A DNA stretch of 64,000 nt. Source: Candidatus Woesearchaeota archaeon. Its GTDB lineage: Archaea; Nanobdellota; Nanobdellia; UBA10117; GCA-020343615. The stretch covers positions 628,166 to 692,165 of the forward strand of contig CP070803.1 of the NCBI GenBank assembly GCA_020343615.1. The letters run 5' to 3'. Positions 31,041-57,923 of this stretch are shown here, piece after piece (within the stretch, counting starts at the first letter, position 1; each line of letters starts with the position of its first letter). The position numbers and the translations under genes are program-made. The notes beneath the pieces are model-generated. The model did no database searches, was not told where the DNA came from, and worked only from the letters and a program-made list of their open reading frames with translations.

Positions 31041-31967
31041 ATGGCAAAAATAGGTATTGAAAATATTGATGAAATCAAAGTTAATGTAATTCCATTAGAA
31101 AGAACTTATGATTCTGTAGGCGATCTAAAAATTAATAGCGCAGTTAAGCGAATGTATATAACTAAAGGTTATCCTTCTGCTCCTAAATCTAGAGAAGAAG
31201 CAGATAAGCGAGGTGAAATACACTTCAACGGTTTGATGAGTTCTTTTACTAAAATCAAAGTTTATGAAGATTCAGATACTAAATTAGTATCAGTAGATAT
31301 CGTTCCCACACGTTATTTAATCGGTCAAGCAATGAGAGACTATATGAAAAAATTTTCTGATCAACTTCACACAAATAAAATATTAAGCTTAAGTCCAAAC
31401 ATGGCTAATGTATCCCTTATAGCACCTATAGAAAAGAATGACGGGTATTATCTTTTAAGCCAAATTAAGGGCAAGGCATTAGGTTCGGGTCAGATTCATA
31501 CTGGAATAGTTGCTGTAAATATAGCTGCTAAATATCTAGCTGATCCAGATCCATTAACTGGAGCAATAAGGGGAGGATGTTCTAGTGAATTAGGAATGAA
31601 GCTAGATCAATTAGATCCTACTTCAACTACATTTATGGTTGATGAAAGAGAAACCGGGCAGGTAAATTTTGCGAGCGTACTCAAGAACGCTGATTTTGGC
31701 GATATATACTCTTCCTATGAATCAAGTGTAAAAGATAAATCCCTTGAAGATTTAGAAGTAATGGGTATTGCGCTTTTACCAACGAAAAATATCAATCAAT
31801 TTATACGAGAAGGTATCGCGAGAGATGTTACATGTTTTATTCCAACTGAAAATGGTCTTGAAGAAAAAAAACAAGATCGACAATTAAGACCATATACTGT
31901 TGCAACTTTAAAGTACATTAAACGTCCAAAAAACCTTGAATTCTTAATTAAAAAAGCAGGATTCTAA
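31041..31967 (+). CDS. hypothetical protein, possibly a degenerate Nudix-like fold related to the convergent 372-aa ORF
   Basis: 308 aa. Its layout (F-NG...TRY...GSGQIHTG...GGCSSELGM) roughly parallels that of ORF 31978..33096; weak. Confidence 0.3.
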   Translation: MAKIGIENIDEIKVNVIPLERTYDSVGDLKINSAVKRMYITKGYPSAPKSREEADKRGEIHFNGLMSSFTKIKVYEDSDTKLVSVDIVPTRYLIGQAMRDYMKKFSDQLHTNKILSLSPNMANVSLIAPIEKNDGYYLLSQIKGKALGSGQIHTGIVAVNIAAKYLADPDPLTGAIRGGCSSELGMKLDQLDPTSTTFMVDERETGQVNFASVLKNADFGDIYSSYESSVKDKSLEDLEVMGIALLPTKNINQFIREGIARDVTCFIPTENGLEEKKQDRQLRPYTVATLKYIKRPKNLEFLIKKAGF

Positions 31968-31977
31968 TAGTGATTAA

Positions 31978-33096
31978 TTAAAGATGACTGATTTGTAGAG
32001 GGTACCTGTGTTTTTTTACCTGTTTTATATGTTCAGTATACCAATAATTGCCTATTTGATTTATTTTTAAATGATCTTTATGCTTTTTTAATTGTTCTTT
32101 AAAAAAAGAATCTCCAAATAAATATCTCCCAGCCCAGGGAAGCATAAACCCAGCTTTTCCTGTTGTTTTAATATTTCGTATCTCTTCAACCTTTTTAGTA
32201 TTAAGGTCTCTCATTTTTAGACCTCTTATTTCTTTAAAAACGTGATCTTCTAAAGGGATATTACCATGATCAATATCTGATGATATAAAAGCATCCCATA
32301 TTTCCTTATCTTTAGGAATAAAAACGTAAGGTCCGTCATGTTCCCAAGAATCTTTAGCCAGTTTCTTTCTTTTTATTATTTCATCAATAGTAATATTTGA
32401 TTTTATAATAGACATTACTGCAGAGTTCTGATGCGATCCCTTAAAGGTATCTTTAACAAAACCCAAAACCCTAGCTTTATCTATTTCCCCCTTTTCAGCA
32501 TTTACTCCTGTTTCTTCTTTCATCTCTGCGAATAGTATTTGTTCTAATTTATGGTTGTATCTTTGGTTTTTATTCATAAATGTGTCCCGGTTCCTATTAA
32601 GGTAGCCTGCTCCAGGAAAACTAAGATAACCAGCTCCAACAGCTAAGGTTTTCTTCCCTTTTTTACCCATTACCACATGATCTTCAACAATTAGAGCAGT
32701 AAATACAGATAAAGGGTCTATAGTCCTTCCTAAAAGATTAACATCTTGCTTAGTTAAACCATAATCTTTAGGGTTTTTTACACCATTCAGAAAGTCTTTT
32801 GTTGAATGATAATCTATAAATCTAATCGGCCCTAATGTAATAAGAGCAGTTTGATATTTTGATACAGGATCAAGCACTTCTAGAAGATTAAAAGAAGGTT
32901 TGTCGAAAAGTTCTCTTTTAGGCTTTTGAGCATTAGCATATGCTACTGATTCATCCCATGCTTTTTTTATACCTCTATTGATTCTTTCAGTAAATTCAAG
33001 AGTTCTATCAGGAGTTTCTTGATAATCCAAGAGAAAACGGGATAAATTAGCTCCGTTAGGCCCAAAATCATTATACACACTAATAGTTCTTACCAT
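31978..33096 (-). CDS. divergent Nudix-superfamily protein with N- and C-terminal extensions
   Basis: FPGAGYL...LEQILFAEMKEETGV. AEMKEETGV matches REUXEEXGU except for R to A, and there is an insertion between the Gly and the helix. Confidence 0.45.
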   Translation of the reverse strand: MVRTISVYNDFGPNGANLSRFLLDYQETPDRTLEFTERINRGIKKAWDESVAYANAQKPKRELFDKPSFNLLEVLDPVSKYQTALITLGPIRFIDYHSTKDFLNGVKNPKDYGLTKQDVNLLGRTIDPLSVFTALIVEDHVVMGKKGKKTLAVGAGYLSFPGAGYLNRNRDTFMNKNQRYNHKLEQILFAEMKEETGVNAEKGEIDKARVLGFVKDTFKGSHQNSAVMSIIKSNITIDEIIKRKKLAKDSWEHDGPYVFIPKDKEIWDAFISSDIDHGNIPLEDHVFKEIRGLKMRDLNTKKVEEIRNIKTTGKAGFMLPWAGRYLFGDSFFKEQLKKHKDHLKINQIGNYWYTEHIKQVKKHRYPLQISHL

Positions 33097-33138
33097 TTTA
33101 ATTATCCATCCTATTTGAGTAACATTTTATAAATTTTT

Positions 33139-34218
33139 TTATTCATACTTAAATATGTCCTTCCATTCTTTTACTTTCTCAGGTAATCTAGGAATAACTT
33201 TAGTCCTAAGAACATTATAAATTTTATTGCTAGCTTCTCCCTCTGGAGCGATAAAATAAGAGCCAGTTTCTTCCTTTAATAAATTACAATTAAGAGTATT
33301 GCCCTCAAAATCCCAAACATTCATTCCAGCAACTTTAGATGCAAAGAATGCGGGAGGAGCAAAATCATGAGCATAAGAACCTCTTTTCATTTTTATATTA
33401 TGTTTTTGTAACTCTTTTTTAACAATGTCTCTTATATCAAAAGAGATACTTCTTGTTGTAGTTGCTTGAAGAATTTCATTAGTAGTAGAACCCGTTGCTC
33501 TGTATCCTAAACTGTAATTCTCAGGTATTTTCAGTTCTTTAAGAATTTCTTGAATAGCAAATGTAGATATTAATTCAGCATGCAAGTAATGAGCAGCAGG
33601 GTATAGTTTTGTAGTTAAAGTTATTTCGTTTAAAGGAGCTAGTGAAACTAAAGAAGCCATTTCTCCCGCTTTTTCAGCAAAAGCATATTTTTTATCAGCA
33701 AAAAACTGATAACCATCCCATCTCTGAATAGCACAACATTCAGCATCTTGCAAATTAGGTTTATCTAAATAAAATGCAATAACAGTGCTAAATAATTTAT
33801 CAGTATCTCCAAGAATGATAGGTTTATTATAACCACTACGCACAGTAGGAACATCAGATTTACTTCCATCTATAGGATCGCAAAGTAAACAGATATATGG
33901 TTTTAATTTTGAAAGATCATCAACTTCAACGAATGTTTCCTCACCGTTCTCGAAATAATGCCATTTTTCTTTCTCAAAGTAAATAGCAACTTTAGATTTT
34001 TTATTCCTTTTGCTTTCATTTAGGAGGAAAGTCCTTATAGCGTCTTCAGCATCTTTTTCAAACTGAGAGATAGGATGATGCGTAGCACCTCTAACGTCAA
34101 TATGATCAAATTCCTTTTTAAGTAAGTCTTCTCTTTTACTAGTTACACTATTAAATGCAACTCTAGTAATACCCCGACACAACTTCAATGGATCTAGCTT
34201 CATCTCTAATGTCCCCAT
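33139..34218 (-). CDS. inositol-monophosphatase/FBPase/CysQ-superfamily phosphatase
   Basis: CDPIDGSKS (DPIDGT-type metal motif) and AHDFAPPAFFASKVAG (WDxAAG-like C-terminal motif). Confidence 0.6.
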   Translation of the reverse strand: MGTLEMKLDPLKLCRGITRVAFNSVTSKREDLLKKEFDHIDVRGATHHPISQFEKDAEDAIRTFLLNESKRNKKSKVAIYFEKEKWHYFENGEETFVEVDDLSKLKPYICLLCDPIDGSKSDVPTVRSGYNKPIILGDTDKLFSTVIAFYLDKPNLQDAECCAIQRWDGYQFFADKKYAFAEKAGEMASLVSLAPLNEITLTTKLYPAAHYLHAELISTFAIQEILKELKIPENYSLGYRATGSTTNEILQATTTRSISFDIRDIVKKELQKHNIKMKRGSYAHDFAPPAFFASKVAGMNVWDFEGNTLNCNLLKEETGSYFIAPEGEASNKIYNVLRTKVIPRLPEKVKEWKDIFKYE

Positions 34219-39415: not shown

Positions 39416-39628
39416 GTAACCTAGACTCTTAAGTCTTTCCTTCACCTTTTTTTCATCTTCTTTAGAGTATTCCTCTTTGTCTACCTTAATCTTATTTTCT
39501 TCTTCTAATCGGCCCACAATTTGTTTAAGAATGTAATCTACGTATCCTTCTACTGAGTCAAATTCATCCATATCTTTAATTCTTTCTTTTATTTTTTCTA
39601 TAATCTCATTATCTATTTCAACTTTCAT
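39407..39628 (-). CDS. small ribbon-helix-helix (CopG-like) protein with C-terminal RLKxLGY tail, paralog A
   Basis: MKVEIDNEIIEKIKERIK..FDSVEGYVDYILKQIV...KVKERLKSLGYLD; similar to 50767..50982 and to the C-terminal half of 42647..42976. Confidence 0.6.
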   Translation of the reverse strand: MKVEIDNEIIEKIKERIKDMDEFDSVEGYVDYILKQIVGRLEEENKIKVDKEEYSKEDEKKVKERLKSLGYLD

Positions 39629-40352
39629 TTTTTATACCTCTTATTAATTCATAAAATTCTGTTATCTTTGGAGTTTTTAAATCTTTAAAATTAGTACTCC
39701 AAAAACCATATTCACTATGGTCCCCAAATCTACCAATAGCTTTCATTCCATGATCTGAGAGGATTATCAAACTCTTAACTCTTTTATTTTTCTTTATTTT
39801 CTCAGCCATCTCATCCAGTTCTATATAAATCATTTTCATGATAACTTTATTTCCGAAATTTAGATGTCCTATAACATCTGCTACTGAAAAATATCCCAAT
39901 ACAAAGTCTCTATCTTCTCCAAGAGCTTTAAAAAACTTATCTTTAATTTTTCTATGATGATCGAAAGCATCTTTATTATACTCTTTCTTTAAGTTCTCTT
40001 TTTTTTCAAGGTTTTTAGTTTCAAAGAAGTTCTTCAAAAGTATTCTGGATTTTCCATGAAATCCTAAATCATAAGAAAATCCTGGAAGATCTAAAACAAC
40101 AGGATTTTCGAAAAAAGAGAAGAATGTTTCTTTAATGTCCCATTTTTTATTCCACATCTCTTTATTACCATCTTCTAAAACATCATCTTCCTTATTTTTT
40201 CCAGTCATAAAACTACTCCATAAAACCATAGTTCTAGGTTGAGAAAATTCAGATATATCTGTTTTTCCATAATATTTTTGCTTTAGATTTTTACAATTAA
40301 ATTCTTCTACTAAGTTATACTCTAAAGCATCTATAGCGAATATTACAATCAT
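39618..40352 (-). CDS. alkaline-phosphatase-superfamily protein, NPP/phosphodiesterase-like with putative Thr nucleophile
   Basis: [12 protein letters not shown] (metal Asp), QPRTMVLWSSFMTGKN (Thr at the nucleophile position, 9 residues before TG), ILSDHGM. Confidence 0.6.
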   Translation of the reverse strand: MIVIFAIDALEYNLVEEFNCKNLKQKYYGKTDISEFSQPRTMVLWSSFMTGKNKEDDVLEDGNKEMWNKKWDIKETFFSFFENPVVLDLPGFSYDLGFHGKSRILLKNFFETKNLEKKENLKKEYNKDAFDHHRKIKDKFFKALGEDRDFVLGYFSVADVIGHLNFGNKVIMKMIYIELDEMAEKIKKNKRVKSLIILSDHGMKAIGRFGDHSEYGFWSTNFKDLKTPKITEFYELIRGIKNES

Positions 40353-40603
40353 TTTTCAACTCCAACCCTAACTTCAAAATTAGCTGAAAACACCCAATCA
40401 TATAAGAAATATGTTATTGCGTTTATAATATTCCATATAACACTTATACCAAACGATAATTTAAGATCTCTTATAAAAAAATAAGTTACAATCGTCTGCA
40501 AACCTATAATCAATATTCTATATACTATTGATTTCCAAATTAATAACCCAACCTTAACTTTCCTTTTAGGATCGTGTTTAAATAACATTTGTTTTACCTC
40601 CAA
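40349..40603 (-). CDS. small 2-TM membrane protein, DUF2061-like
   Basis: [17 protein letters not shown]...[11 protein letters not shown] resembles the DUF2061 pattern as I remember it. I also recall this family lying next to sulfate-activation genes in other genomes (from memory, not verified). Confidence 0.45.
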
Positions 40604-41828
40604 TTTCAGTGATTATTCCACCAGCACAGGTATCTTGTCTTTCCAAAACAAATCTACCTAATGTAGGTATATCATTAAAGTCCTCGAAAACAACATCCGA
40701 ACTTAACTTTATAATAACATCAGCAACCTCTCTATTTTTAATTTCATCAGCATCTTCTCTTAAAGTCTCAAGTGTTGAGGAATCTATAACTCTCTCTATT
40801 TTTTCAAGTTCACCCATAATCTCCTGTGACGATAATTTAAATAGTACTCTTTCACCTTTTTTGTAAGGTTCCCTATCCAACCAAAATAAATGTCCCTTTA
40901 CCGCACTTGTTATTTTAGGTTGTTCTTCATCTTTATGAGTAAGTATGCACCCTCTATCTAAGAAAAGACCATCTTCAGTGACTATCCCAATACTTTTTCC
41001 AGCTTCAGCTTCTTTAGGTGCCTTAAGCCACTCCTTTATTTCCTTTACTTTTGTAGTTTCCTTAGACGGAAGAACAAGTATCTCATCATTTTCTTTTATT
41101 AATCCACTTAAAACCATACCAGCATTTATCCTTTCATCAAATTTGTAGACATCTTGAACAGCAAACCTAGTTGGTCTATCAATTAAAGACTCTTCCTTAC
41201 TAAAACTATCAAGAGCGTCCAAAACTGTAGGTCCATCAAACCATTTTAAGTTCTCAGTTTTTTTAGCAATAAAGTCACCTTCTTTAGCAGATATTGGAAT
41301 AATATAAGATGGTTTTATATTGAGTTTATCTAAAAATTCTATAAGCTCTTTTTTTACCTCATTAAATCTATCCTTACTATAATCAACAAGATCCATTTTA
41401 TTTATAGTTACAATAACTTGTTTTAACCCCAACATTTTCAAGATGTAGGAATGTCTTCTTGTTTGTTCTTTAACACCTTCATTAGCATCGACAATTAGAA
41501 TTGCTGCTTCAGCCTGAGAGGCACCAGTAATCATATTTTTTATAAATTCTACATGACCCGGAGCATCTATAATTGTATATTCTCTCTTATCAGTACGGAA
41601 AAATGTTTGAGCAGTATCTATAGTAACACCCTGATCTCTCTCTTCCGCCAAGTGATCCATCACATATCCAAACTCTATATCCTTACCAAGAGATTCACAT
41701 ATTTGTTTTATTTCTTCAATTTTTCCTTCAGGTAGAGAATCAGTATCATAAAACAACCTACCTATAAGTGTAGATTTCCCATGATCAACATGCCCAACAA
41801 TTACAAATCTTAAGTTTTCCTTTTCCAT
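40578..41828 (-). CDS. cysN: sulfate adenylyltransferase subunit 1 (CysN, EF-Tu-like GTPase), without a fused APS-kinase domain
   Basis: [23 protein letters not shown]. About 416 aa from the ATG at 41828 (the listed start at 41843 is a TTG). Confidence 0.85.
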
Positions 41829-41829
41829 T

Positions 41830-42642
41830 TTACATATACCCAAGAGCTCTAAGCTTTTGCATAGCTTGAGCCTCTTCTTTATCTTGAGCCCTTCCAGATC
41901 TTTCAGCGATTTTACTTTCTCTGATTTCTTTTATTATCTCATCAACATTAGTTGCTTTACTAGGCATAGGAGAAGTACAAGGGACACAACCCAAACTTCT
42001 GTAACGAACCATCTTTCCATCTCTTTTTTTAGCAAAATATAGAGAATTTACAGGAAGATTCTCTCTTTTAACATACTTCCAGACATCTATTTCAGTCCAT
42101 TCAAGTAAGGGGTGGATTCTAAGATGTTGCTCAGATTCTTTTTGGGATTTGTACTGATCCCATAACTCTGGAGCCTGGTTCTTGTAATCCCATCTAAAAT
42201 CTTTATTTCTAGGGCTGAATATTCTTTCTTTGGCTCTTATTCCATGTTCATCTCTTCTTATACCTAATAATAAAGCCTCAAACTTGTACTTATCAATTGT
42301 TTTCTTAAGAGCATCAGTTTTTCTTGCAGTACAGCAATCTAATTTATCTTCAGGACTAATCCCTTTTTTATCCGATTCATCAATATTATCAGATACAATT
42401 AGATTGAGATCCCATTTCTTTACACATTCATCCCTAAAATCATACATTTCCTTGAAATGTTTTCCAGTGTCTATATACACAACTGGAAATGGTACGTTTC
42501 CAAAGAAAGCCTTTTTTGCAAGCCAAATAAGAACGGTAGAATCTTTACCAATCGACCACAACATAGCGATTTTTCTAAATTTTTTATATGCTTCTCTAAT
42601 TATATATATACTCTTACTCTCTAATTCATCTAGATGATCCAT
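41830..42642 (-). CDS. cysD: sulfate adenylyltransferase subunit 2 (CysD, PAPS-reductase-fold ATP pyrophosphatase)
   Basis: [12 protein letters not shown]...[10 protein letters not shown] (PP-loop SxGxDS). 270 aa; its stop lies 1 nt before the cysN ATG. Confidence 0.85.
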
Positions 42643-42646
42643 TTCT

Positions 42647-42976
42647 TCACAAATATCCTAAATTTTCAAGCCTCTTTTTGATTTTAATCTCATCAGACTC
42701 ACTAAGCTTTACATCTTCAGACAGTATAAGGCGCAACATAAAAGTGACGTATTCTGAAACTGAAGATATATCCGTGTCTTTGATTTTATCTTTCAATTTG
42801 TTAGATAATTTAGAGGGTATAGATACAATTGTTTTTTCACGATCCAATTCCTTAAAAACAGAAATCATATCACTAAGTAACTCTTGGTATGAGATATCCC
42901 TATTAGAAGCTAAAATTCTCAATTCTTTCCTCAAGTTTTCAGAAACTTGAATAGTAGTTCTGTTTTTCATAACCAT
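42647..42976 (-). CDS. double ribbon-helix-helix protein with C-terminal RLENLGYL tail, paralog C
   Basis: N-terminal RHH (TTIQVSENLRKELRILASNRDISYQELLSDMISVF). A second RHH-like unit (IVSIPSKLSNKLKDKIKDTDISSVSEYVTFMLRLIL) and the tail (IKKRLENLGYL) match paralogs A and B. Confidence 0.6.
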   Translation of the reverse strand: MVMKNRTTIQVSENLRKELRILASNRDISYQELLSDMISVFKELDREKTIVSIPSKLSNKLKDKIKDTDISSVSEYVTFMLRLILSEDVKLSESDEIKIKKRLENLGYL

Positions 42977-43028: not shown

Positions 43029-43730
43029 TTAATTTTTTCCGAGAATGGCTATGTGTTTTAAAACTGGATGAATGATAAAATATGTTTCTCCTTCATCTTT
43101 TTGGATAGGTATATCTGGAAACTCACCAATTTTTAAATAGTCCTTTATAACAGATACCAACAAATCTGCTCTTATATACGGATCGTATTCATAGTCTATA
43201 ATAGTTCTATCTTTTGGAGGAGCATATTCTTTCATTTTGATAACACCCCCCGCATCTATCCTTTTTTCTAGAAAAAAAGCGCTCGCAAAACATTTATTCT
43301 CTTTTAATATACTATAATAAACAGTAGTGCTTCCTCTATAGCCTGGAAGACTGCCCGGGTGTACATGAAGAAATTTCTTCCCACAATTAAGAATATCCTC
43401 TTTCAAAATAGCTCCTCCACTCCCAGAATAAATGAAATATTTTTCAGGTCTCTTTTTTAAAATCTTAATAACTGTCTCACTGTTAATATCTTTTGTAGGA
43501 CAGATTTCAAAAGATATATTATTATCTTTTATAGTTTGCATTATATCTTCATTTAAATCAAAATATTCATTTGAACTTCTTATCTTTTTTTTAAGTTGTC
43601 CTGGAGAAACCTTTTTGTCTTCCATTATAATAACATGTGAAGGAATAAGATTTTCCGCAACTAGTTTTTGTAAGTAAGCCTGTGATCTTGGAGACGAAAC
43701 GATTAACATACCTACATTATTAATTATCAT
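43029..43730 (-). CDS. formyltransferase-fold protein (Formyl_trans_N-like)
   Basis: FLHVHPGSLPGYRGSTT...RIDAGGVI parallels the HPSLLPxYRG...DxG core of Fmt/PurN-type enzymes. Confidence 0.55.
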   Translation of the reverse strand: MIINNVGMLIVSSPRSQAYLQKLVAENLIPSHVIIMEDKKVSPGQLKKKIRSSNEYFDLNEDIMQTIKDNNISFEICPTKDINSETVIKILKKRPEKYFIYSGSGGAILKEDILNCGKKFLHVHPGSLPGYRGSTTVYYSILKENKCFASAFFLEKRIDAGGVIKMKEYAPPKDRTIIDYEYDPYIRADLLVSVIKDYLKIGEFPDIPIQKDEGETYFIIHPVLKHIAILGKN

Positions 43731-44458
43731 AACTCCACCTTTTTTGTTTTGATTAAACTACTAATTGCTTGTTTTTCTAATTTTAATAATAAATAACTAA
43801 TAATTAATTCTTCACGTGTTTCTATTTTGTCGATAACTGAACAAATCGTGTCATTTATTTTTAGAGTTGCATTTAAGAATTTAAAGTTACGTGAGAAATT
43901 ATAATAATCCATAATTAAAAATGATAGTAAGATGTAATTTTTGATAGTTCTATAATCAGATTCATTTTTTACAAAATTTTTAGCATACGAGTCACATATT
44001 TTTTTTGTAACTTCAAATTTTTTCAGTAATTTACTCAACACAAAATAGAATTTTTCTTTGTTATCCACATTCAACATCATTAAAATTAATTTTTCTAGTG
44101 CTGATTTAGTAATTATTTCTTCATTTCCGAGAGTCTCAAGGAACGAATTAGTTTCTTCTAAGGAAAATTTATCAAACTCTTGAATTATTAATGAATTACT
44201 TATTTTATTATTTTCTTCCAAAATCTTTATTTTATTAGCGAAATTTATAACACACGAACCCACTTTAGTTAATTCTATTTTTTCACTAGAGTTTTGATTA
44301 GAGAAAAGGTTTTCTAATATTTTCTCTTGACATTCCTTTCGATATTCAAAAAATTCATTAAGAAAATCTTTTCCATTATACAGAGTATACATATATATAT
44401 TAGGAGATTCAATCCTATTGATTTTTGAATATTCATAAACCATAGTTTTTATTTTCAA
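43727..44458 (-). CDS. hypothetical, predicted helical protein
   Basis: 243 aa with no motif recognised. Overlaps both neighbours (4 nt and 26 nt), so it belongs to the operon. Confidence 0.4.
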   Translation of the reverse strand: MKIKTMVYEYSKINRIESPNIYMYTLYNGKDFLNEFFEYRKECQEKILENLFSNQNSSEKIELTKVGSCVINFANKIKILEENNKISNSLIIQEFDKFSLEETNSFLETLGNEEIITKSALEKLILMMLNVDNKEKFYFVLSKLLKKFEVTKKICDSYAKNFVKNESDYRTIKNYILLSFLIMDYYNFSRNFKFLNATLKINDTICSVIDKIETREELIISYLLLKLEKQAISSLIKTKKVEL

Positions 44459-45560
44459 ACATTATTTCTTTTAATTCTTCTTTATATTTTTTAATTATAC
44501 TATCATTTTTAGCATAAATATTATTTTTTTCTTCAGGATCCTTTTCTAGATCATAAAATTCCCAAGTAGAAGGCGTTTTGTTACAAATAAGTTTTTTATC
44601 ATCATGTCTTACACAAAAAACATTATGTTCTTCCGGTGACGGCCAAGGACCTTTTATTCCTCCAGTTTCAATAAAAGCGACTCTATCCTTTTTTTCTTTT
44701 TCTTTTATTATAGGAATCAAACTTTTACCCTGCATTGTTATAAAAGAAAAGTCTTCAGGAATATTTAACATTCTTAATATTGTAGGCATTATATCAATTA
44801 TTCTACATTGAACACGAGTTTTCGAAGTTTTGATATTAGGAGCATAAAGATAACAAAACGATTTTACAGTATAATCATAAGTAAATACACCATATATTTT
44901 TTCTCCAACTTTTTCTCCAACACTTGTTCCATGATCTGAGTGATAGATTATTATGCTGTTATCGAATAATTTTAACTCTTCAAATAATCTGTTCATTTTT
45001 CCAACGTACTCATTGCATTCTTTTACAAAACCCTCATAACGTTGAATATTTTTCTTAATATTTCCAAAATACTCTTCACTAAAATCATCATATTTTTCAG
45101 CAACTTCTTTCACTAGTCTGTTATGTATAGGACTATATTGTATATGTAAGAAAAAAGGCTCTTTCTTAATTAACTCCTTTATTAATTCTTTTTGTCTTAA
45201 AAACATATCAATATTTTTTTTATGAACCATTACTTCATCAAACCCTTGTTCAGGAAGAAGGCATTTGTTTACTACATCAGAAACACAGTAATAATTTTTT
45301 TCTTTTAAGTATTGAGATAGAGTTTTACATATATTTTTTTTAAATCTGAACATTCTATAGTAACCATTTACTCCATTTTTTGAAGGATGCATTCCTGTAT
45401 GAAGTGTGTGAAAAGACGCCATAGTATACGGAGAATTTGTAATCATATTACTAAAGAAAAAACTTTTTTTCTCAAACTCTTTTAAATTGTTACATAAATT
45501 TAGTCTATCTCTTCTTAATGCATCTAAAGTTATTATAATAACGTTTTTCAAAGTAATCAC
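44433..45560 (-). CDS. sulfatase-family (alkaline-phosphatase superfamily) protein with Thr in place of the Cys/Ser-x-Pro-x-Arg nucleophile motif
   Basis: IIITLDALRRDRL, NSPYTMASFHTLHTGMHPSKNGV (Thr aligns with the sulfatase Cys; no P or R follows), YHSDHGTSVGE. Confidence 0.65.
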   Translation of the reverse strand: MITLKNVIIITLDALRRDRLNLCNNLKEFEKKSFFFSNMITNSPYTMASFHTLHTGMHPSKNGVNGYYRMFRFKKNICKTLSQYLKEKNYYCVSDVVNKCLLPEQGFDEVMVHKKNIDMFLRQKELIKELIKKEPFFLHIQYSPIHNRLVKEVAEKYDDFSEEYFGNIKKNIQRYEGFVKECNEYVGKMNRLFEELKLFDNSIIIYHSDHGTSVGEKVGEKIYGVFTYDYTVKSFCYLYAPNIKTSKTRVQCRIIDIMPTILRMLNIPEDFSFITMQGKSLIPIIKEKEKKDRVAFIETGGIKGPWPSPEEHNVFCVRHDDKKLICNKTPSTWEFYDLEKDPEEKNNIYAKNDSIIKKYKEELKEIMFENKNYGL

Positions 45561-46348
45561 CCTTCTAAATCAATAAATCTATTTAATGTTTTATTTTCCA
45601 ACCATGATTGATATTTTTCATAATCTTCATCAGTATCAAATTCAAGCCAACTGTTTTTGATATTTATTGTTTTTACAAGGTATCCATTATTAATCAATGC
45701 CTGTAACATACAAGTCATATACGCTTTTTTGAATGATTTTGAATTTAACCAAGGTTCATCTTTATCGAAATATTTCTCTTTATTCTCATGATAAACTTTC
45801 TTGAGTGCTTCAACACGGTACTTTGAAAATTTAATTAATCCAACATATCTTATTTTAGCCTCGTCAGGTGAACAATTACAATTCCCCAACTCAACTATTC
45901 TACCATCTTTATCAACAACCAAACTTTCCATATCTTCTTTAGGTTTATCAAGTCTTGCACTCCAATAAGCTAGATAATCTGTATCCACAGTTACTCCAAT
46001 ATCTGATCTATCCGATAAAATCTTATTTATCACTCTTTTTTCATAGATTATGTCTCCATAACATACAAGAATTTCATCAATCATTTCTTCTTCAGCGCTA
46101 AAGAGTGTTTCTACCATATTTGTATTTTCATAATCCTCGTTCGTATAGTATTTAACATCTGGAATTTTTATTTTATCCGCCATGTATCCTTTTACTATAG
46201 TAATATCAGTTACACCGCAGGCTCTTAGCGTTTCTATTTGTCTCTGAATAAGGCTTTTTCCATTAAATTTTAACATACATTTAGGTAAGTTTTTAGTATA
46301 TTTTTTTAATCTTGTCCCTTTTCCTGCAGCGAGAATTATTGCTTTCAT
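45557..46348 (-). CDS. NTP-transferase (sugar/phospho-compound nucleotidyltransferase; same family as LicC and Cj1416)
   Basis: MKAIILAAGKGTRLKKYTKNLPKCML signature; 263 aa. Confidence 0.75.
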   Translation of the reverse strand: MKAIILAAGKGTRLKKYTKNLPKCMLKFNGKSLIQRQIETLRACGVTDITIVKGYMADKIKIPDVKYYTNEDYENTNMVETLFSAEEEMIDEILVCYGDIIYEKRVINKILSDRSDIGVTVDTDYLAYWSARLDKPKEDMESLVVDKDGRIVELGNCNCSPDEAKIRYVGLIKFSKYRVEALKKVYHENKEKYFDKDEPWLNSKSFKKAYMTCMLQALINNGYLVKTINIKNSWLEFDTDEDYEKYQSWLENKTLNRFIDLEG

Positions 46349-46356
46349 TTTGATAA

Positions 46357-47013
46357 TTAATTTTTCTTTAGAATAAGAAAGATTCTTTCTTTTACATTAT
46401 AAGGATAATTAGAAGGTACTCTTTTATGAACTAATATATCGAAATGTTTCTTTAAATGTTCCAGTTTTGGTTGAAATATTTCTTCTTCACTGTCTTCTGC
46501 CTGACTTTCAAATATAAGTAAGCCTTTAGGTTTTAATATTGAAATAATCTTGTCTATATATTCAATAAAGTTAAACTTAGTATTCTCGTCTATGGTAGAA
46601 TCATTAGCAAGTGAGAATACTATATCTTTTCGGCCAATCACAATATAATCCTCGAAAGAACAGGCGTGGAAATTGGCGTTTTTAATTCCTAGAAACTTTT
46701 TAGTTTCGTCAGAGATCATTACTAAATAAGGGTTTATCTCGACGCCTTCTATATGCTTTAAGTAGTCAGATAATAGTAGAGTTAAGAAACCGTTGTTACT
46801 GCCTATGTCTAGAGCTGTCTTGTCACGGGAGAGGTATTTTCCTATGTTGTACCTCCTAAACCTCTCTTCTGTAGGTCTGGCTCCCTTTATTCCGACCCTA
46901 TCAAATCCCTGGTAGAACCCTCCCTCTTCTTCACTATATCTAAAAGACGGCCAGTTTTCTTCCTGTTCCTTAAGATGACTCTTCAGTTTTTCATGTAATT
47001 CTGTTAATTCCAT
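46357..47013 (-). CDS. class I SAM-dependent methyltransferase
   Basis: ALDIGSNNGFLTLLL (motif I), GVEINP (motif II). Confidence 0.7.
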   Translation of the reverse strand: MELTELHEKLKSHLKEQEENWPSFRYSEEEGGFYQGFDRVGIKGARPTEERFRRYNIGKYLSRDKTALDIGSNNGFLTLLLSDYLKHIEGVEINPYLVMISDETKKFLGIKNANFHACSFEDYIVIGRKDIVFSLANDSTIDENTKFNFIEYIDKIISILKPKGLLIFESQAEDSEEEIFQPKLEHLKKHFDILVHKRVPSNYPYNVKERIFLILKKN

Positions 47014-47016
47014 TTT

Positions 47017-47718
47017 TTATTTTTCTCTCCAAAATAATTCTTTATTAATAAATAGTTTTATGATTTTTTCATTTAATTGCTCATCATGATCTAATTTATT
47101 TCTTTCAGGATGCCACTGTATTCCTGCTATAGGCAGTTTTGGATGAAATATTCCTTCAATTATGCCATCTTCCGCTATTGCAAATGGTTTTAATTCAGAA
47201 GATAGTGTTTTCGAATTAACACCTTGATTATGATATGAGTTCACATTTGCTTCTTTACACAATTCTTTTTTTACAACTTCATCAATGATTTTGATTTTAT
47301 GAGTTTTAGCTACATGTTCAATTTTTGATTCTATTTCTTCTTTTATATTAGATATTAGTTTTCCATTAAAAAACACATTTATAAATTGCATACCTCTACA
47401 AATTCCTAAAACAGGAAGGTTTTTTTCTATACTTGTTTTTAACATGTTTTTTTCAATCTCATCTCTTTCTTCAGAGAAATCATCACTTTTATATTCTTCA
47501 CCACCATAATTTTTAGGACGTACAGAATTCCCTCCAGATAATATTACTCCAGAAATATATAATTTTTCAAAGTAATAATTAAAATTCTTTGTTGAATTAG
47601 GTATTGTTATAAGCTTTATCCCAAATTTTTCAAGATAATTAATATAGTTGTTTTCTAAATTATCTATCAAATCGCCATTCTTATTTCTATCGTTTCTTTG
47701 AGATATTGCAACTATCAT
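47017..47718 (-). CDS. class I glutamine amidotransferase-like / peptidase C26 gamma-glutamyl hydrolase
   Basis: LPVLGICRGMQFINV (nucleophile Cys), GIQWHPE (His/Glu). Confidence 0.75.
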   Translation of the reverse strand: MIVAISQRNDRNKNGDLIDNLENNYINYLEKFGIKLITIPNSTKNFNYYFEKLYISGVILSGGNSVRPKNYGGEEYKSDDFSEERDEIEKNMLKTSIEKNLPVLGICRGMQFINVFFNGKLISNIKEEIESKIEHVAKTHKIKIIDEVVKKELCKEANVNSYHNQGVNSKTLSSELKPFAIAEDGIIEGIFHPKLPIAGIQWHPERNKLDHDEQLNEKIIKLFINKELFWREK

Positions 47719-50696
47719 TTTATTTTAGTAATGTTCTTAGCCTCACAATCTAAGATTATTGAATCATTATGATTTAATTTTTCGTAAAGAGATCCACACC
47801 CAATTGCTGCAGGTATTCCGAATTCTGCACATCTTATCGCCATGTGAGATGCTACTCCGCCATATTTTGTTATTAACCCCGCAGGCTTTTTAGTGAATAT
47901 CCAATCATATCCAGGATCTCCATTTTCAAGAATTACAATTTTATTTTCAATCTCAGGAATATCTGTACTTTCTCCACCTATCTTTACGATGCTTCCTTTT
48001 ATTTTGTGTTGAGTTATAAAATTAGGTTTCGGGTTATAAGACTGGATTATATCGAAATTATCTTTCGAAAAGATTATTGGAGGTAAAATTATTTTACTGT
48101 TAATTTCTTTTCCTTTTATTCTTGAAGAAATAATACTCTTTAAATTTTCAGCCATATCTTCTCTTTTCATTTTTAAGCTAGAAAAAAGTTCATGAACGCT
48201 TAGCATACTCATTTCTTCTCTTGTAAAACCCATTAATTCTCCCGCCAAAGCTATGAATTCAATAGCATCACTAAGATTTTTTGTAAATTCAAATTTAGAA
48301 TATTCTCTTGATTCAATTCCGGACTTTGCGAATTCGAACAATTCTTCTGCATCAAATTTCAAACCGTATTCTTTAAGAGTCCTTGTAATTTTTTTCTTTT
48401 TCTCTTCATTTAATTCAAATTTACTTAATTTTTTTGTTTTAGTTATTTTTGATGCTTTTATTAATAAAGGATTGAGTCCGTATCTAGGGTTGGTAATATC
48501 ATAAGATCCAGGTCTTAAATGATTATATTTTTTAATAAAAGTGCTCTCATCAAGGCGATTCATACTTAACATTTCAAAATCTTTATTCATTTCTGTTGCT
48601 ACAGTGTTTATAGAATCCATAAACCGATAATATTCTTGTTTTGTCATGACTCCTTTTTTTACAAGACTTTTCAATATTATTTTTCCAACAAATGCAAGCC
48701 TTGCAAGCCTTGAAAATTGAACTGTTCCCCTTTCTCTACAGTCGTCTAATAAATATTTAGCATTATAAATTAGTTTATGTACAGAGGCGTAAACACTATC
48801 TAAATCTTCCTTTAATTTATCCTTATTTTCTATCAATTTTTTAAGTGAATTTAAATCCTCATTAATAGTCTTTTTTGAATTAAGTATTAGATTATTTGTT
48901 AACTCTAATAACGCTCCCTTTAGTTGTTTAATTTCTTCTTCATCAAAACCATTATTAATTAAGTCTTTAGTTCTCTCATCAAAATTTATATCGTAACAAG
49001 TATGTGCTATTTCAAATTCAATTTTATCTTGTAGTTCAGGATTTTCTTCTAATTTTTTAAGATAAAAAGATACCAGCTTATGTCGTAATTTAGGATTAAT
49101 AGTTGAAGGAACAAAAGAATTAAAGCTGTTTCTAACATCAATATAAGGTTTGTTTCCCATTAATACTACTAATTTAGCAGGATTTACATTATGATAGCCT
49201 TGAGATGTTCTTGCTTCGTGCCACGCACTATTTGTTATTAAATAATCATACAAAGTGTAAGCTAAATGATTTGGTCTATCTCCAATTATTTCTGCAGGAT
49301 TCCAATCAGGCATGTCTGCTAAGATTGTTTTTTCTCCACCTAGGTGTTCTTTCTTTTTGATTATTTCCTCAAATTCTCGTTTAAGAAATTCTATTTTATT
49401 TTTTATTAACTCTTGTTCTGATTTTTTCATAGATTTACAAGTTAAAGGTCTCACTTGAAAAATAATTACTTCCTTATATTTATTAATTGAAAATTCTATA
49501 TCTAATCCTAAATTAGGAACTATTTCTTCAATTTCTTTTACTGATTCAATTAGTTTTTTGAACTTATTAGGTATTTTTTCTAATTGACAGAATTTAGATA
49601 TACTTATCGATTTATTCTCTACCCCTTTTGTGACAGTATTAGATTCTCCAGTAGAATCATCAAAGTTAATAACATAGTAAGGAGCACTTTTTTCTAAACT
49701 GTGCGTGAACAGAACACCACTTATCTCAATATCATCTGTTTGAGCTTGAATTAAAACTTTGTTAAATGAGCTTCCAGAATTATTTTTTTCATAAGATTTA
49801 ATTACTTTATTTATTGCCGATTCAACACTAGTTGTATTTTTTGAATCTACACTTAAAAAACTTTCAAAATATCCAGCCATAGATTCTTCTTCAGTATCTT
49901 CAGTTAATGCTGAACTTCTAACAACAATATTTTTTCCATCAAATTTTTCTCTAATTAACTGTAACATCTTTTCACGATTATTTTTCCATTCAGAAACAGA
50001 AAAAGAAAATAGTTTTTCAATTTTTGATTTCTTAAGTAATGGTTGAAGTGCCTCTAATGTATCTGCTTTGTTCGATATTATTGTTTTATTTTCTTTTTCA
50101 GAAGGAATATTTTTTTCCTTCGTTAATAATGAACTAAATTTCACAAGATCTTTTTGTTGTTTTATATTTTCAATTAATTTATTAGTAATTTTAAATGTTG
50201 AAAGTTTATCATAATAAGGTGTTTTTCTAAGTTTACCGTTAATTTTTCTTATATATTCCGATCCCGGGACATATTTCCAGTCACTCCCATGAATTAGAAT
50301 AATTTCTGCTTCCGGGAACTCTTCATGTATTTTTTTTAAGTTATCCTCTGGATCTCTACTATGCTGTATCATTACTTTATCTATGTGTCTTAAATTTGAG
50401 ATTACCGCCTTCCTTTCTTTTAAATTAGAAATAGGTTCTCCTCGATACTCTTTAACTGCTTCATCTGTAAGAATTCCACACACCACATAATCTACTATTG
50501 ATTTGGCAAACAGTATTGTTTGTAAGTGACCATAATGAAAAAGATCTCCTACTATTCCTAAATAAGCGATTTTCTTTATATCTACCTTTTTTAATTCTAG
50601 AATGTGCCCTTCTTTTATTCCCAAGCCTCGAGGTATTGTTACACATAATTGTCCATTAGATTTATTCTTCCACACTACTTTTTTCAATTTATACAC
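47715..50696 (-). CDS. multidomain enzyme: AbrB/SpoVT-like N-terminus, HxGH cytidylyltransferase-like domain, PPDK_N-type ATP-grasp, and a C-terminal PEP-utilizer swivel phosphohistidine domain
   Basis: - QLCVTIPRGLGIKEGHILELKK is AbrB-like.
- GIVGDLFHYGHLQTILFAKS is the HxGH nucleotidyltransferase motif.
- NIVVRSSALTEDTEEESMAGYFESF is the PPDK_N signature.
- GGVASHMAIRCAEFGIPAAIGC is the phospho-His swivel.
- GTG start at 50696; there is no ATG within the first ~100 codons. Confidence 0.7.
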   Translation of the reverse strand: MYKLKKVVWKNKSNGQLCVTIPRGLGIKEGHILELKKVDIKKIAYLGIVGDLFHYGHLQTILFAKSIVDYVVCGILTDEAVKEYRGEPISNLKERKAVISNLRHIDKVMIQHSRDPEDNLKKIHEEFPEAEIILIHGSDWKYVPGSEYIRKINGKLRKTPYYDKLSTFKITNKLIENIKQQKDLVKFSSLLTKEKNIPSEKENKTIISNKADTLEALQPLLKKSKIEKLFSFSVSEWKNNREKMLQLIREKFDGKNIVVRSSALTEDTEEESMAGYFESFLSVDSKNTTSVESAINKVIKSYEKNNSGSSFNKVLIQAQTDDIEISGVLFTHSLEKSAPYYVINFDDSTGESNTVTKGVENKSISISKFCQLEKIPNKFKKLIESVKEIEEIVPNLGLDIEFSINKYKEVIIFQVRPLTCKSMKKSEQELIKNKIEFLKREFEEIIKKKEHLGGEKTILADMPDWNPAEIIGDRPNHLAYTLYDYLITNSAWHEARTSQGYHNVNPAKLVVLMGNKPYIDVRNSFNSFVPSTINPKLRHKLVSFYLKKLEENPELQDKIEFEIAHTCYDINFDERTKDLINNGFDEEEIKQLKGALLELTNNLILNSKKTINEDLNSLKKLIENKDKLKEDLDSVYASVHKLIYNAKYLLDDCRERGTVQFSRLARLAFVGKIILKSLVKKGVMTKQEYYRFMDSINTVATEMNKDFEMLSMNRLDESTFIKKYNHLRPGSYDITNPRYGLNPLLIKASKITKTKKLSKFELNEEKKKKITRTLKEYGLKFDAEELFEFAKSGIESREYSKFEFTKNLSDAIEFIALAGELMGFTREEMSMLSVHELFSSLKMKREDMAENLKSIISSRIKGKEINSKIILPPIIFSKDNFDIIQSYNPKPNFITQHKIKGSIVKIGGESTDIPEIENKIVILENGDPGYDWIFTKKPAGLITKYGGVASHMAIRCAEFGIPAAIGCGSLYEKLNHNDSIILDCEAKNITKIK

Positions 50697-50766
50697 CGTT
50701 TACTAGTATAACTAGTAATAAGTATTTAAATTTTCTGTTAAATGTAAATTAGAAATAAAACATTAA

Positions 50767-50982
50767 CTATCGTTCATATCCTAGTTGCTTAAGTCTTTCT
50801 TTTGATTTCTTTTTTTCCTCTTCAGATAAAGGCCTTTCATTATCTGATTCAGAAATTTCAATTCTTCGAGCAACTTGTCCTAAAATGAAATTCACATACT
50901 CATCAACTGTTTCGAATTCATCTGAATTATTAACTTGTTTTTCTAGTTTTTTCCCAATTTCATCAAGTAGTTCAACTTTCAT
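50767..50982 (-). CDS. small ribbon-helix-helix (CopG-like) protein with C-terminal RLKQLGY tail, paralog B
   Basis: MKVELLDEIGKKLEKQV..FETVDEYVNFILGQVA...SKERLKQLGYER. The start at 50982 was chosen by alignment to paralog A (the listed start is 50991). Confidence 0.6.
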   Translation of the reverse strand: MKVELLDEIGKKLEKQVNNSDEFETVDEYVNFILGQVARRIEISESDNERPLSEEEKKKSKERLKQLGYER

Positions 50983-51133
50983 TTTTAACACCTTTCATTA
51001 ATATAATAACCAATTCATATTTCTTTTTTTAGCCATCTCGTAATCTTAATAATTACTAATAAGAAATATCCTAATTATGTATATAAATCTTTTCTTCACT
51101 AAATTTATATACTTATATACAAAAAAATAAGTT

Positions 51134-57179: not shown

Positions 57180-57923
57180 ATGGAAAAAGTTAGGGGAGAT
57201 ATAGGAATTAGTACTACTTCATTTTTTTATTGGTTTGAAGATACTAGAAGTAATTGGTTAAATCGCCAATTAGAAGTTCTCGAATTAATTAAAGATATTT
57301 TTATAACTGTAGAGCTTCATTTTTTAGAAAGAAATATTTTCGAATTCAATGAAGAGTTCATGGAAAAATATTCAAAAAAATTATCTTGGTTTAATAAAAT
57401 AACTTTACACTTACCTTCTAATTTTTCAGATGTTGTAAGTCCAGAAGAATATAATATAGCTAATAAAAAATTAAATGAAATAGTAGAAAGATTGAATATA
57501 GAATATTGTGTCATGCATGCAAATCAATACAAAAAAATTGATTTTAATTTTACATTCCCAATATCCATTGAGAATACCGATCCTAGATCTGAAGATTATG
57601 ATTTAATTAAAATCAACGAACTTGAAAAACCAATAGTTTTAGATGTTGATCATTTAGAAGAAAAGGGAGAAGGAGTTTTTGATGAACAGATAGACCTTCT
57701 AAAAAATAAAATCTCAGAGATTCATTTTTCTATTCCTAGGAATGAATACTATAACCAATTCAAAGAAATAATCACACCACACTTTTTAGCATACAAGTCT
57801 GATTATAATATTCCTAAAAAAATACCAAAAGATAAAATATGGATAATTGAAGGAGTTATTCCAAATAACAGAATGGATATGTTAGAAGGCGAGGTAAAAT
57901 TAATTGAAAAATATAAAAACTAA
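57180..57923 (+). CDS. hypothetical protein, possibly a xylose-isomerase-like TIM barrel (sugar phosphate isomerase/epimerase family)
   Basis: Periodic strand-end H/D/E residues (VELHF, LHLP, VMHA, IENT, LDVDH, IHFS); weak. Confidence 0.35.
   Translation: MEKVRGDIGISTTSFFYWFEDTRSNWLNRQLEVLELIKDIFITVELHFLERNIFEFNEEFMEKYSKKLSWFNKITLHLPSNFSDVVSPEEYNIANKKLNEIVERLNIEYCVMHANQYKKIDFNFTFPISIENTDPRSEDYDLIKINELEKPIVLDVDHLEEKGEGVFDEQIDLLKNKISEIHFSIPRNEYYNQFKEIITPHFLAYKSDYNIPKKIPKDKIWIIEGVIPNNRMDMLEGEVKLIEKYKN

Follow-up and report, generated by a model that had tools for sequence, protein, structure and literature searches.

A phosphoramidate substituent has been shown chemically on glycans of Campylobacter, as O-methyl phosphoramidate (MeOPN), and in unmethylated form on the lipopolysaccharides of Xanthomonas and Shewanella (PMC3907429), with no other case in the literature that we searched. 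In the same literature, Campylobacter jejuni is the sole organism with an elucidated donor pathway, in which Cj1415-Cj1418 make CDP-phosphoramidate 3′-phosphate from glutamine, ATP, and CTP (PMC11800397), and a 2026 preprint describes CDP-glutamine as known only from in vitro work on this organism (bioRxiv 10.64898/2026.02.12.704994). Among archaea, a cluster in a Borg element has been read as MeOPN-like in a 2024 preprint (bioRxiv 10.1101/2024.11.05.622173); for phosphoramidate-type operons of DPANN archaea, or for a wider family of such clusters, our literature search returned nothing. Here we describe an operon on the minus strand of a 64,000-nucleotide (nt) stretch of DNA from a Candidatus Woesearchaeota archaeon (GenBank assembly GCA_020343615.1, contig CP070803.1, positions 628,166 to 692,165; hereafter the window, whose own numbering is used for all coordinates). 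This operon probably encodes a Campylobacter-type nucleoside-diphosphoramidate pathway that places phosphoramidate on a cell-surface glycan.

Like the MeOPN locus of C. jejuni, the window brings together the same three core families, a glutamine-kinase-like dikinase, a C26-type hydrolase, and a nucleotidyltransferase (NTP transferase), in one operon within a surface-glycan locus. It differs from its Campylobacter counterpart in being archaeal, in carrying an extra HxGH-type nucleotidyltransferase domain fused to the kinase, and in lacking a Cj1415-type kinase. It also adds a 243-residue protein (unk243), a formyltransferase (Fmt)-fold protein of 233 residues (Fmt233), a Thr-type alkaline phosphatase (AlkP)-superfamily protein, and the sulfate-activation proteins CysD and CysN (together CysDN). 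The Methanoperedens Borg cluster likewise has a glutamine kinase, a C26 hydrolase, and one or more cytidylyltransferases in a glycan region, as assigned by structure prediction. Compared by description, that cluster is extrachromosomal and contains a phosphoenolpyruvate (PEP)-mutase fusion, whereas the window represents a DPANN chromosome with the HxGH fusion, the unk243/Fmt233 pair, and CysDN.

An initial annotation, made from the sequence alone, had delimited seven tightly packed minus-strand open reading frames (ORFs), and all seven are present exactly where it placed them (50696..43029). They encode a 993-residue fusion protein (50696..47715) with CTP_transf_like, PPDK_N, and PEP-utilizers domains in Pfam; a 233-residue Peptidase_C26/GATase protein (47718..47017); a 218-residue class I methyltransferase dependent on S-adenosylmethionine (SAM) (47013..46357; Methyltransf_31/23); a 263-residue NTP transferase (46348..45557; NTP_transf_3 and NTP_transferase); the 375-residue AlkP-superfamily protein (45560..44433; Sulfatase, SGSH_C, and Phosphodiest); unk243 (44458..43727), an ORF that is without a Pfam match; and Fmt233 (43730..43029), with a weak match to Formyl_trans_N. 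By these coordinates, four junctions overlap (by 4, 4, 26, and 4 nt) and the other two leave 3 and 8 nt between genes, in line with the original description. The motifs quoted at that time all occur in the translations, and Pfam reproduced each of the family assignments made for these genes.

The kinase comprises residues 202-993 of the fusion protein (47718..50093, minus strand) and consists of an ATP-grasp domain, a helical substrate domain, and a swivelling phospho-His domain. Residues 202-991 match the NCBIfam model NF004508/PRK05849 at 851.5 bits (cut-off 501), spanning profile positions 6-787 of 789, and the catalytic His951 (GGVASHMAIR) is invariant across two homologue sets (54 and 24 sequences). 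We take Cj1418 to be a member of the PRK05849 model, with which the name "glutamine kinase" given by IMG to several of the homologues, archaeal ones included, agrees. An AlphaFold (AF2) model built from 54 homologues has a predicted local distance difference test score (pLDDT) of 85, and the closest fold in the PDB is that of rifampin phosphotransferase (RPH; 5hv1/5fbs, E = 8e-21). The latter enzyme (RPH-Lm; 5HV1, 5FBS) shares the ATP-grasp, helical substrate-binding, and swivelling phospho-His domains and, like the window protein, has no triosephosphate isomerase (TIM) barrel, but its sequence is 14% identical and both its substrate domain and its genomic context differ.

The Pfam domains of the kinase part (PPDK_N and PEP-utilizers, the mobile domain of the latter falling at residues 917-985) and the RefSeq name "PEP-utilizing enzyme" for its relatives would also suit a PEP synthase or pyruvate phosphate dikinase (PPDK) of central metabolism whose neighbors happen to be unrelated glycan genes. 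We consider this reading exceedingly improbable. Pfam detected no PEP/pyruvate-binding TIM barrel (PEP-utilizers_C, PF02896) in the 993-residue protein, and the NCBIfam models for PEP synthase, PPDK, PigC, and RPH score at most 56 bits on the kinase part (TIGR01418, 56 bits against a cut-off of 740; TIGR01828, 14.5 against 843; RPH models, at most 21 bits). Moreover, the rifampin phosphotransferase fold ranks above that of any PEP synthase, and the gene stands in strict synteny with those for the C26 protein and the NTP transferase. A PEP synthase or PPDK identity is thus refuted by the domain search, the model scores, and the fold search, and assignment of the kinase part to the glutamine-kinase family is supported by its full-length match.

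The C26 protein (Pfam Peptidase_C26, E = 5.6e-41) is a candidate gamma-glutamyl-NDP-amidate hydrolase resembling Cj1417. Its top NCBIfam model is NF045546, the gamma-glutamyl-CDP-amidate hydrolase equivalog that represents Cj1417, at 103.3 bits, which is under the equivalog cut-off of 250, with PuuD next at 65.7 bits. The same model is the best one for 43 of 43 cluster-linked C26 homologues, with no E-value better than 4e-43. Residues C107, H203, and E205, which form the Cys-His-Glu triad of class I glutamine amidotransferases (GATases), are invariant among the C26 homologues, and the start codon of the gene lies in a 4-nt overlap with the kinase stop codon. Relatives of this protein are filed in RefSeq under the name "gamma-glutamyl-GABA hydrolase family".

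For the NTP_transf_3 protein, the closest PDB entry is LicC (1jyk), with PntC (6pd1) also matching, and the named models that fit it best (LicC, AglF, and GlmU-type) all remain below their cut-offs. Over its full length, it is 30-41% identical to the single transferase that follows the C26 gene in bacterial clusters, as compared with 21-27% identity to the NTP-type domains that are fused to kinases. Judged by synteny and identity, it is orthologous to that single transferase. The initial annotation had likened the three core proteins to Cj1418, Cj1417, and Cj1416, respectively, and each comparison is strengthened by these results: the first is a full-length member of PRK05849 and neither PEP synthase nor PPDK, the second has the Cj1417 equivalog as its best (sub-threshold) family and an intact triad, and the third is the conserved post-C26 nucleotidyltransferase of related clusters.

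Conservation of the gene neighborhood was examined in 150 loci, in which six-frame ORFs were called and searched with phmmer and jackhmmer over 8 kb around the kinase. The close set comprises 31 unique HxGH-type archaeal loci that extend 5 kb or more to either side of the kinase, and the bacterial set comprises 46 loci flanked by 5 kb or more; the co-occurrence counts that follow derive from six-frame ORFs and iterated profiles and are uncorrected for phylogeny. Both the C26 and the NTP transferase genes accompany the kinase in 31 of 31 close loci, with C26 directly adjoining it in every case, and they are found in 41 and 36, respectively, of the 46 bacterial loci. The combination of kinase, C26, and NTP transferase genes, seen in every close archaeal locus and in the majority of bacterial loci, is far beyond chance. 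A check of neighborhood conservation, as had been proposed at the outset, therefore finds the trio to be syntenic in relatives, in some of which an APS-kinase-like gene is adjacent or fused (APS denotes adenosine 5′-phosphosulfate). Of the outcomes that the initial annotation had named as refuting its proposal, the two that can be computed, a PEP synthase or PPDK identity of the kinase part and a gene co-occurrence not conserved in relatives, were both examined, and neither came out against it.

At E ≤ 1e-30, the kinase family includes 1,532 representative protein clusters (50% identity), and it occurs in at least 575 GTDB species. Its members are found in DPANN and other archaea, including the cultured Haloferax elongans, in Pseudomonas, Cohnella, Alteromonas, Methyloversatilis, Desulfovibrio, Lachnospiraceae, Omnitrophota, and bacteria of the candidate phyla radiation (CPR), and on plasmids of Vibrio, Azospirillum, Cupriavidus, and others. 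The three-enzyme core is near-universal in a large DPANN group, and cultured Haloferax, Pseudomonas, Cohnella, Alteromonas, Vibrio, and Azospirillum have it as well. No Campylobacter was present among the 80 kinase loci listed from the contig scan or the 10 cluster-representative kinases, and the PDB sequence searches brought up no structure of Cj1415-Cj1422. In Lachnospiraceae, Clostridia, and Bacteroides, the kinase and C26 proteins are fused (L043, L046, L047, L055, L061, L075, L079, L086, and L088, by our numbering of loci), and no NTP transferase or APS-kinase-like gene occurs near these fusions among the matches listed.

In the pathway that we propose, the kinase would phosphorylate the amide nitrogen of glutamine via phospho-His951, the NTP_transf_3 protein would convert phosphoglutamine and CTP to CDP-glutamine, and the C26 hydrolase (Cys107-His203-Glu205) would then take off glutamate to give cytidine diphosphoramidate. 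Cytidylylation is ascribed to the NTP_transf_3 protein because it is the sole such enzyme in many bacterial clusters. These predicted kinase, cytidylylation, and C26 steps are supported by family membership and strict synteny. The resulting donor might be used directly, without 3′-phosphorylation, or a 3′-kinase may be encoded elsewhere in the genome. Transfer to a sugar hydroxyl could be carried out by the Thr-type AlkP-superfamily protein and/or the pair of unk243 and Fmt233; for the former, transfer would proceed via a covalent Thr intermediate, by analogy with the LtaS/EptA relatives of that Pfam family. Finally, the methyltransferase may methylate the transferred group.

Several points weigh against this pathway assignment. 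The likeness to Cj1415-Cj1422 is indirect, having been drawn from family models and synteny and not from direct comparison, and no Cj1421/Cj1422-type transferase was identified, in an analysis in which those proteins were themselves not compared. Neither tblastn nor a jackhmmer profile found a Cj1415-type APS-kinase-like sequence in the 64-kb window, in agreement with the absence of such a gene from the initial annotation. The score of the C26 protein on the Cj1417 equivalog falls short, as given above, and no NCBIfam model specific to the cytidylyltransferase step matched the NTP protein, for which one scan covered only the C-terminal half. Furthermore, the HxGH domain, unk243/Fmt233, and CysDN are not needed by the C. 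jejuni pathway, and because of these components the product may differ from MeOPN. We also know of no chemistry for any archaeal glycan of this kind.

Among the putative late-acting proteins, the AlkP-superfamily protein is soluble, and its C-terminal half resembles carbohydrate sulfatases. Its nucleophile region, YTMASFHTLHTG, has T-M-A-S-F at the position of the C/S-x-P-x-R motif, so that a Thr stands where sulfatases have the Cys or Ser precursor of formylglycine (CxPxR). The protein consequently lacks the motif of a formylglycine-dependent (S1) sulfatase while retaining its overall match to the family. Relatives of AlkP/Sulfatase type lie near the core in 8 of the 31 close loci, the copy in L004 being 35% identical. 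On these grounds, we regard the protein as a candidate phosphoramidate transferase or phosphodiesterase. The genes that might encode transferases do vary between loci, to judge from their family matches: CDP-alcohol phosphatidyltransferases are encoded beside the core in 14 of the 31 close loci, a TagF-like gene lies near it in L006 and on a Vibrio plasmid, and sulfotransferase-fold proteins are present in some loci.

The initial annotation had listed unk243 and the formyltransferase-fold protein merely as extra components, which understates their relationship, as they form a widely conserved and sometimes fused pair. No match to unk243 was obtained in Pfam, in NCBIfam, or, with a family profile, in the PDB. 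It is an all-helical protein with the conserved motifs YPY, KKFEVxKR, and LNxxLKxND, and an AF2 model made from 4 sequences reached a pLDDT of only 55. Word-indexed homologue searches returned 1 and then 4 proteins, whereas jackhmmer located unk243 in 27 loci and Fmt233 in 30, in bacteria as well as archaea. The two are fused to one another in L013, L015, L118, and L145, whereas in L045 and L051 the fusion partner of unk243 is an APS-kinase-like domain. Of 16 bacterial Fmt233 copies, 14 sit with an APS-kinase-like gene. By these sequence comparisons, unk243 is a new conserved family and a partner of Fmt233. The latter scores 16.9 bits on PF00551, against a gathering score of 26.1, and matches fmt weakly in NCBIfam; searched against the PDB, its family profile recovers Fmt (4iqf, E = 1.5e-11) along with sugar N-formyltransferases. 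It carries a variant active-site motif, HxHxGxLPxY(R/K)GST...D, in which H122, H124, and D159 do not vary and all 21 members have His in place of the catalytic Asn found in formyltransferases (N-x-H). Thus, neither the Asn-x-His...Asp signature nor a score above the gathering threshold, as expected of formyltransferases dependent on N10-formyl-tetrahydrofolate, is found in Fmt233.

For the methyltransferase, non-iterated phmmer searches found relatives only in L006, L082, and L087, and its similarity to the methyltransferase of an Azospirillum cluster is generic, which together do not support broad orthology. An O- or N-methylation step is possible. Its comparison with Cj1419/Cj1420 is at the level of family, and no function has been assigned to those two proteins (PMC11800397), for which reason O-methylation is a guess.

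The second nucleotidyltransferase of the operon is the HxGH cytidylyl/adenylyl-transferase domain at approximately residues 41-175 of the fusion protein (50172..50576, minus strand; Pfam CTP_transf_like at residues 51-146). Its closest PDB relative is the Fom1 cytidylyltransferase (CyTase; 5x3d), both in sequence (E = 4.7e-12) and in fold (template modeling [TM] score 0.84, root-mean-square deviation 2.3), with TagD (1coz) as the next match (TM 0.83-0.84 for Fom1 and TagD). Residues H54, G56, and H57 and the motif PYY.RLS are at least 90% conserved among 54 homologues of the fusion protein. The fold, the HxGH motif, and the C-terminal nucleotide-binding motif are shared with other HxGH cytidylyltransferases (Fom1 CyTase 5X3D, TagD 1COZ, ECT/CCT, and RfaE domain II/HldC), from which the window domain differs in being fused to a glutamine-kinase-like protein. 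By its family match, the domain is a second nucleotidyltransferase joined to the kinase, although in L007 it is encoded by a separate gene directly upstream of the kinase gene. At the same N-terminal location, Haloferax, Vibrio, Saprospiraceae, CPR bacteria, and others have an NTP_transf-type paralogue in place of the HxGH domain of DPANN, so that two unrelated folds fill one position. We also considered the HxGH domain as the primary equivalent of Cj1416 and rejected it, as clusters with a single transferase always carry the NTP_transf_3 type.

The co-directional unit does not stop at 43029, where the initial annotation had closed it. On the same strand, 52 nt past this position, is a gene for a 109-residue CopG/ribbon-helix-helix (RHH)-like protein (42976..42647; Pfam CopG_antitoxin at E = 9e-5, below the gathering score), and 4 nt further are genes for CysD (42642..41830; NF003587 and Pfam PAPS_reduct) and CysN (41843..40578; TIGR02034 and Pfam GTP_EFTU), the latter overlapping the former by 14 nt. 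The unit thus probably continues through RHH, CysD, and CysN to 40578; CysDN had previously gone unseen. CysD scores 363.7 bits on NF003587 (cut-off 195) and CysN scores 345.1 bits on TIGR02034 (cut-off 336.1), and CysN is without an APS-kinase domain.

The Campylobacter donor is an analogue of 3′-phosphoadenosine 5′-phosphosulfate (PAPS). Compared with systems for the synthesis and use of PAPS itself (CysDN or Sat, CysC, sulfotransferases, and CysQ), the window unit has a bona fide CysDN, and in its relatives the genes next to the core also encode Sat, APS kinase, sulfotransferase-domain proteins, and CysQ, whereas the window is without an APS kinase or a sulfotransferase. Of the 46 bacterial loci, 27 have an APS-kinase-like gene, as do 10 of the 31 HxGH-type loci. 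In P0093/P0099, the HxGH-kinase protein carries a fused APS-kinase-like domain at its N-terminus, and in L007 the kinase, C26, NTP, and APS-kinase-like proteins are all encoded separately. For most of the cluster-linked APS-kinase-like proteins tested, the PRK05541 subfamily is the best match and the score is under the canonical apsK cut-off.

Of the 31 unique close loci, 9 have Sat or CysDN next to the core, namely 6 of 10 loci with Fmt233 as compared with 3 of 21 without it (Fisher p = 0.015, uncorrected for phylogeny). A Sat-type ATP sulfurylase occurs in eight further DPANN loci, together with unk243/Fmt233 (five loci, four of them with a HIT-family gene) or with PAPS-type sulfotransferases. 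In L004, L006, and L015, Sat (with HIT) follows Fmt233 where the window has CysDN, a non-orthologous replacement. CysDN also adjoins the core in a Saprospiraceae locus (L034) and on a Vibrio plasmid, where an SLC13 permease gene accompanies it.

HIT enzymes act on nucleoside phosphoramidates and on APS. A HIT-family gene recurs beside C26/NTP or between Fmt233 and ATP sulfurylase in L004, L006, L015, L093, L100, L103, L113, and L118; the window has no HIT-family gene.

These associations raise the prospect that CysDN or Sat and the unk243/Fmt233 pair use APS on the nucleoside diphosphoramidate made by the core enzymes, whether by N-sulfonation of the phosphoramidate or by formation of the donor through adenylyl transfer, in place of the Campylobacter 3′-kinase step. 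Such N-sulfonation is exemplified by the sulfodiaminophosphinyl group of phaseolotoxin. The occurrence of bona fide CysD and CysN within the co-directional unit of the operon, the enrichment of Sat/CysDN with Fmt233, the placement of Sat after Fmt233, the Saprospiraceae and Vibrio occurrences of CysDN, and the tendency of the bacterial unk243/Fmt233 pair to sit with, or be fused to, an APS-kinase-like gene are all in keeping with this idea, and the phaseolotoxin Pht cluster contains a PPDK-like gene along with cysC1 (PMC3927611). The tie between PhtL and the kinase family is nevertheless one of description only, the enrichment rests on small counts uncorrected for phylogeny, and the Fmt233 fold is that of a formyltransferase rather than a sulfotransferase, with no activity known for either member of the pair. 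Moreover, other Sat-bearing loci encode ordinary PAPS-type sulfotransferases and CysQ, which suggests plain sulfation in parallel, and we therefore judge an APS-linked chemistry to be unlikely. We attach similarly little credence to a broader proposal, in which the DPANN version is a distinct branch without a 3′-kinase where CysDN/Sat, a HIT protein, and unk243/Fmt233 act on the nucleoside diphosphoramidate to yield a modified group (e.g., N-sulfonated or N-acylated) instead of MeOPN, the pair then being the missing and widespread P-N glycan enzyme in Pseudomonas, Cohnella, and Alteromonas.

The cluster might instead activate some other head group with CDP, if the kinase acts on a substrate other than glutamine, or if CDP-glutamine or another CDP-amino acid is itself the donor, so that the decoration is linked by a phosphodiester. 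Two nucleotidyltransferases would then activate two head groups, in the manner of CDP-threonine in the modification of Clostridioides difficile flagellin or of decoration with phosphocholine or 2-aminoethylphosphonate. The affinities of both transferases fit such a scheme, the HxGH domain being nearest to Fom1, TagD, and ECT (phosphonate, glycerol-phosphate, and ethanolamine-phosphate cytidylyltransferases) and the NTP_transf_3 protein to LicC and PntC, as do the CDP-alcohol phosphatidyltransferase and TagF-like genes noted above. CDP-amino acid donors are known to exist (bioRxiv 10.64898/2026.02.12.704994), and the C. difficile FtaABCD system for CDP-threonine is akin to the window in using a nucleotidyltransferase together with a methyltransferase and a phosphotransferase for glycan decoration from a CDP donor. 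That system, however, has neither a dikinase nor a C26 hydrolase, and the amino acid stays on its donor. In the window and its relatives, the C26 protein is strictly tied to the kinase, to the point of fusion in Clostridia and Bacteroides, and glutamyl removal is the sole sense of such coupling. With the best family of the C26 protein being CDP-amidate hydrolase and the kinase being a full-length member of the glutamine-kinase family, a CDP-linked head group other than phosphoramidate seems to us improbable, and we favor the nucleoside-diphosphoramidate pathway.

The initial annotation knew this chemistry only from Campylobacter and held that an archaeal version would be new. That view is not sustained, given the occurrence of the kinase family in at least 575 GTDB species, H. 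elongans among them, the existing use of "glutamine kinase" in IMG, and the Borg preprint. The operon is real but not unique at the gene level. Phosphorus-nitrogen (P-N) decoration of glycans may far exceed what the chemical literature suggests, as the core is found in so many species while the RefSeq labels of its proteins stay generic. The operon and its relatives show the pathway to be widespread and modular, and they draw attention to the unk243/Fmt-fold pair, a second nucleotidyltransferase of two alternative folds, alternative transferases, and a link to sulfate activation as conserved components.

Three loci from outside DPANN illustrate this modularity at the level of gene content. Plasmid pYa108 of Vibrio alfacsensis (L157) carries cysDN and the SLC13 permease beside kinase-C26-NTP and the TagF-like phosphotransferase, and plasmid AZO_p6 of Azospirillum lipoferum 4B (L158) carries an 846-residue APS-kinase fusion, a methyltransferase, kinase-C26-NTP, and two sulfotransferase-domain proteins. 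The RefSeq names in both are "PEP-utilizing enzyme", "gamma-glutamyl-gamma-aminobutyrate hydrolase family", and "phosphocholine cytidylyltransferase family". H. elongans ATCC BAA-1513 (L037; NZ_AOLK01000024.1) has a kinase with the NTP-type fusion, C26, an NTP transferase, a PRK05541-type APS-kinase-like gene, and a short unk243-like ORF. As a cultured haloarchaeon, it offers a tractable organism for the study of archaeal phosphoramidate glycans.

The wider surroundings of the operon form a glycan island with genes for a Wzx-type flippase, two NeuB proteins, a CMP-sugar synthetase, DegT, and family 2 glycosyltransferases (GT2), and the window also carries the archaeal housekeeping genes for PolD and Cdc6. 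Related loci carry AglB/STT3, an S-layer protein, and glycosyltransferases. Upstream of the operon, on both strands between 52696 and 63870, are genes for a PseB-like dehydratase, a HisH/HisF-like pair with a 398-residue protein, the two NeuB proteins, the CMP-sugar synthetase, DegT, GT2, a hexapeptide acetyltransferase, and a radical SAM/SPASM protein. Since these are genes of a nonulosonic-acid-type pathway, they suggest that a pseudaminic- or legionaminic-like acid is part of the same glycan. The island ORFs at 31041-34218 and 57180-57923 (308, 372, 359, and 247 residues) have no Pfam match at E ≤ 0.001. The 372-residue protein contains a Nudix-like EMKEETG motif, and the 359-residue protein (33139..34218) contains a DPIDGS motif and has no PDB match; its candidacy as a CysQ-type phosphatase was set aside, with support in neither Pfam nor the PDB.

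Two further features concern the margins of the operon. Downstream of CysN by 225 nt, and on the same strand, is a gene for a 244-residue protein resembling alkaline phosphatases and nucleotide pyrophosphatases/phosphodiesterases (39618..40352, minus strand; Pfam Phosphodiest, E = 1.2e-5), a relative of which is located 3 kb from the core in L020; the gene is a possible member of the unit. At the opposite end, the first residues of the fusion protein (residues 1-40; 50577..50696, minus strand) form a segment, VTIPRGLGIKEGHILELKK, that reads as AbrB/SpoVT-like, has no significant Pfam match, and is modeled by AF2 as short strands with a pLDDT of 63-75. To judge from coverage figures, the segment would be shared by homologues aligned over 99-100% of the query and missing from those aligned over about 96%.

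Upstream of the operon, where the initial annotation had placed an RHH regulator gene, is an ORF for a small protein of 74 residues (50767..50991, minus strand), a possible RHH regulator. In favor of this assignment, the protein is paralogous to the C-terminal half of the 109-residue RHH-like protein (BLASTP E = 2e-7, 34% identity), but it has no significant match of its own in Pfam or NCBIfam. The CopG/RHH match is weak and confined to the 109-residue paralogue, which looks like a tandem duplication of the module. The two small paralogues bracket the operon (50767-50991 and 42647-42976), and both end in ...RL(K/E)(Q/N)LGY.

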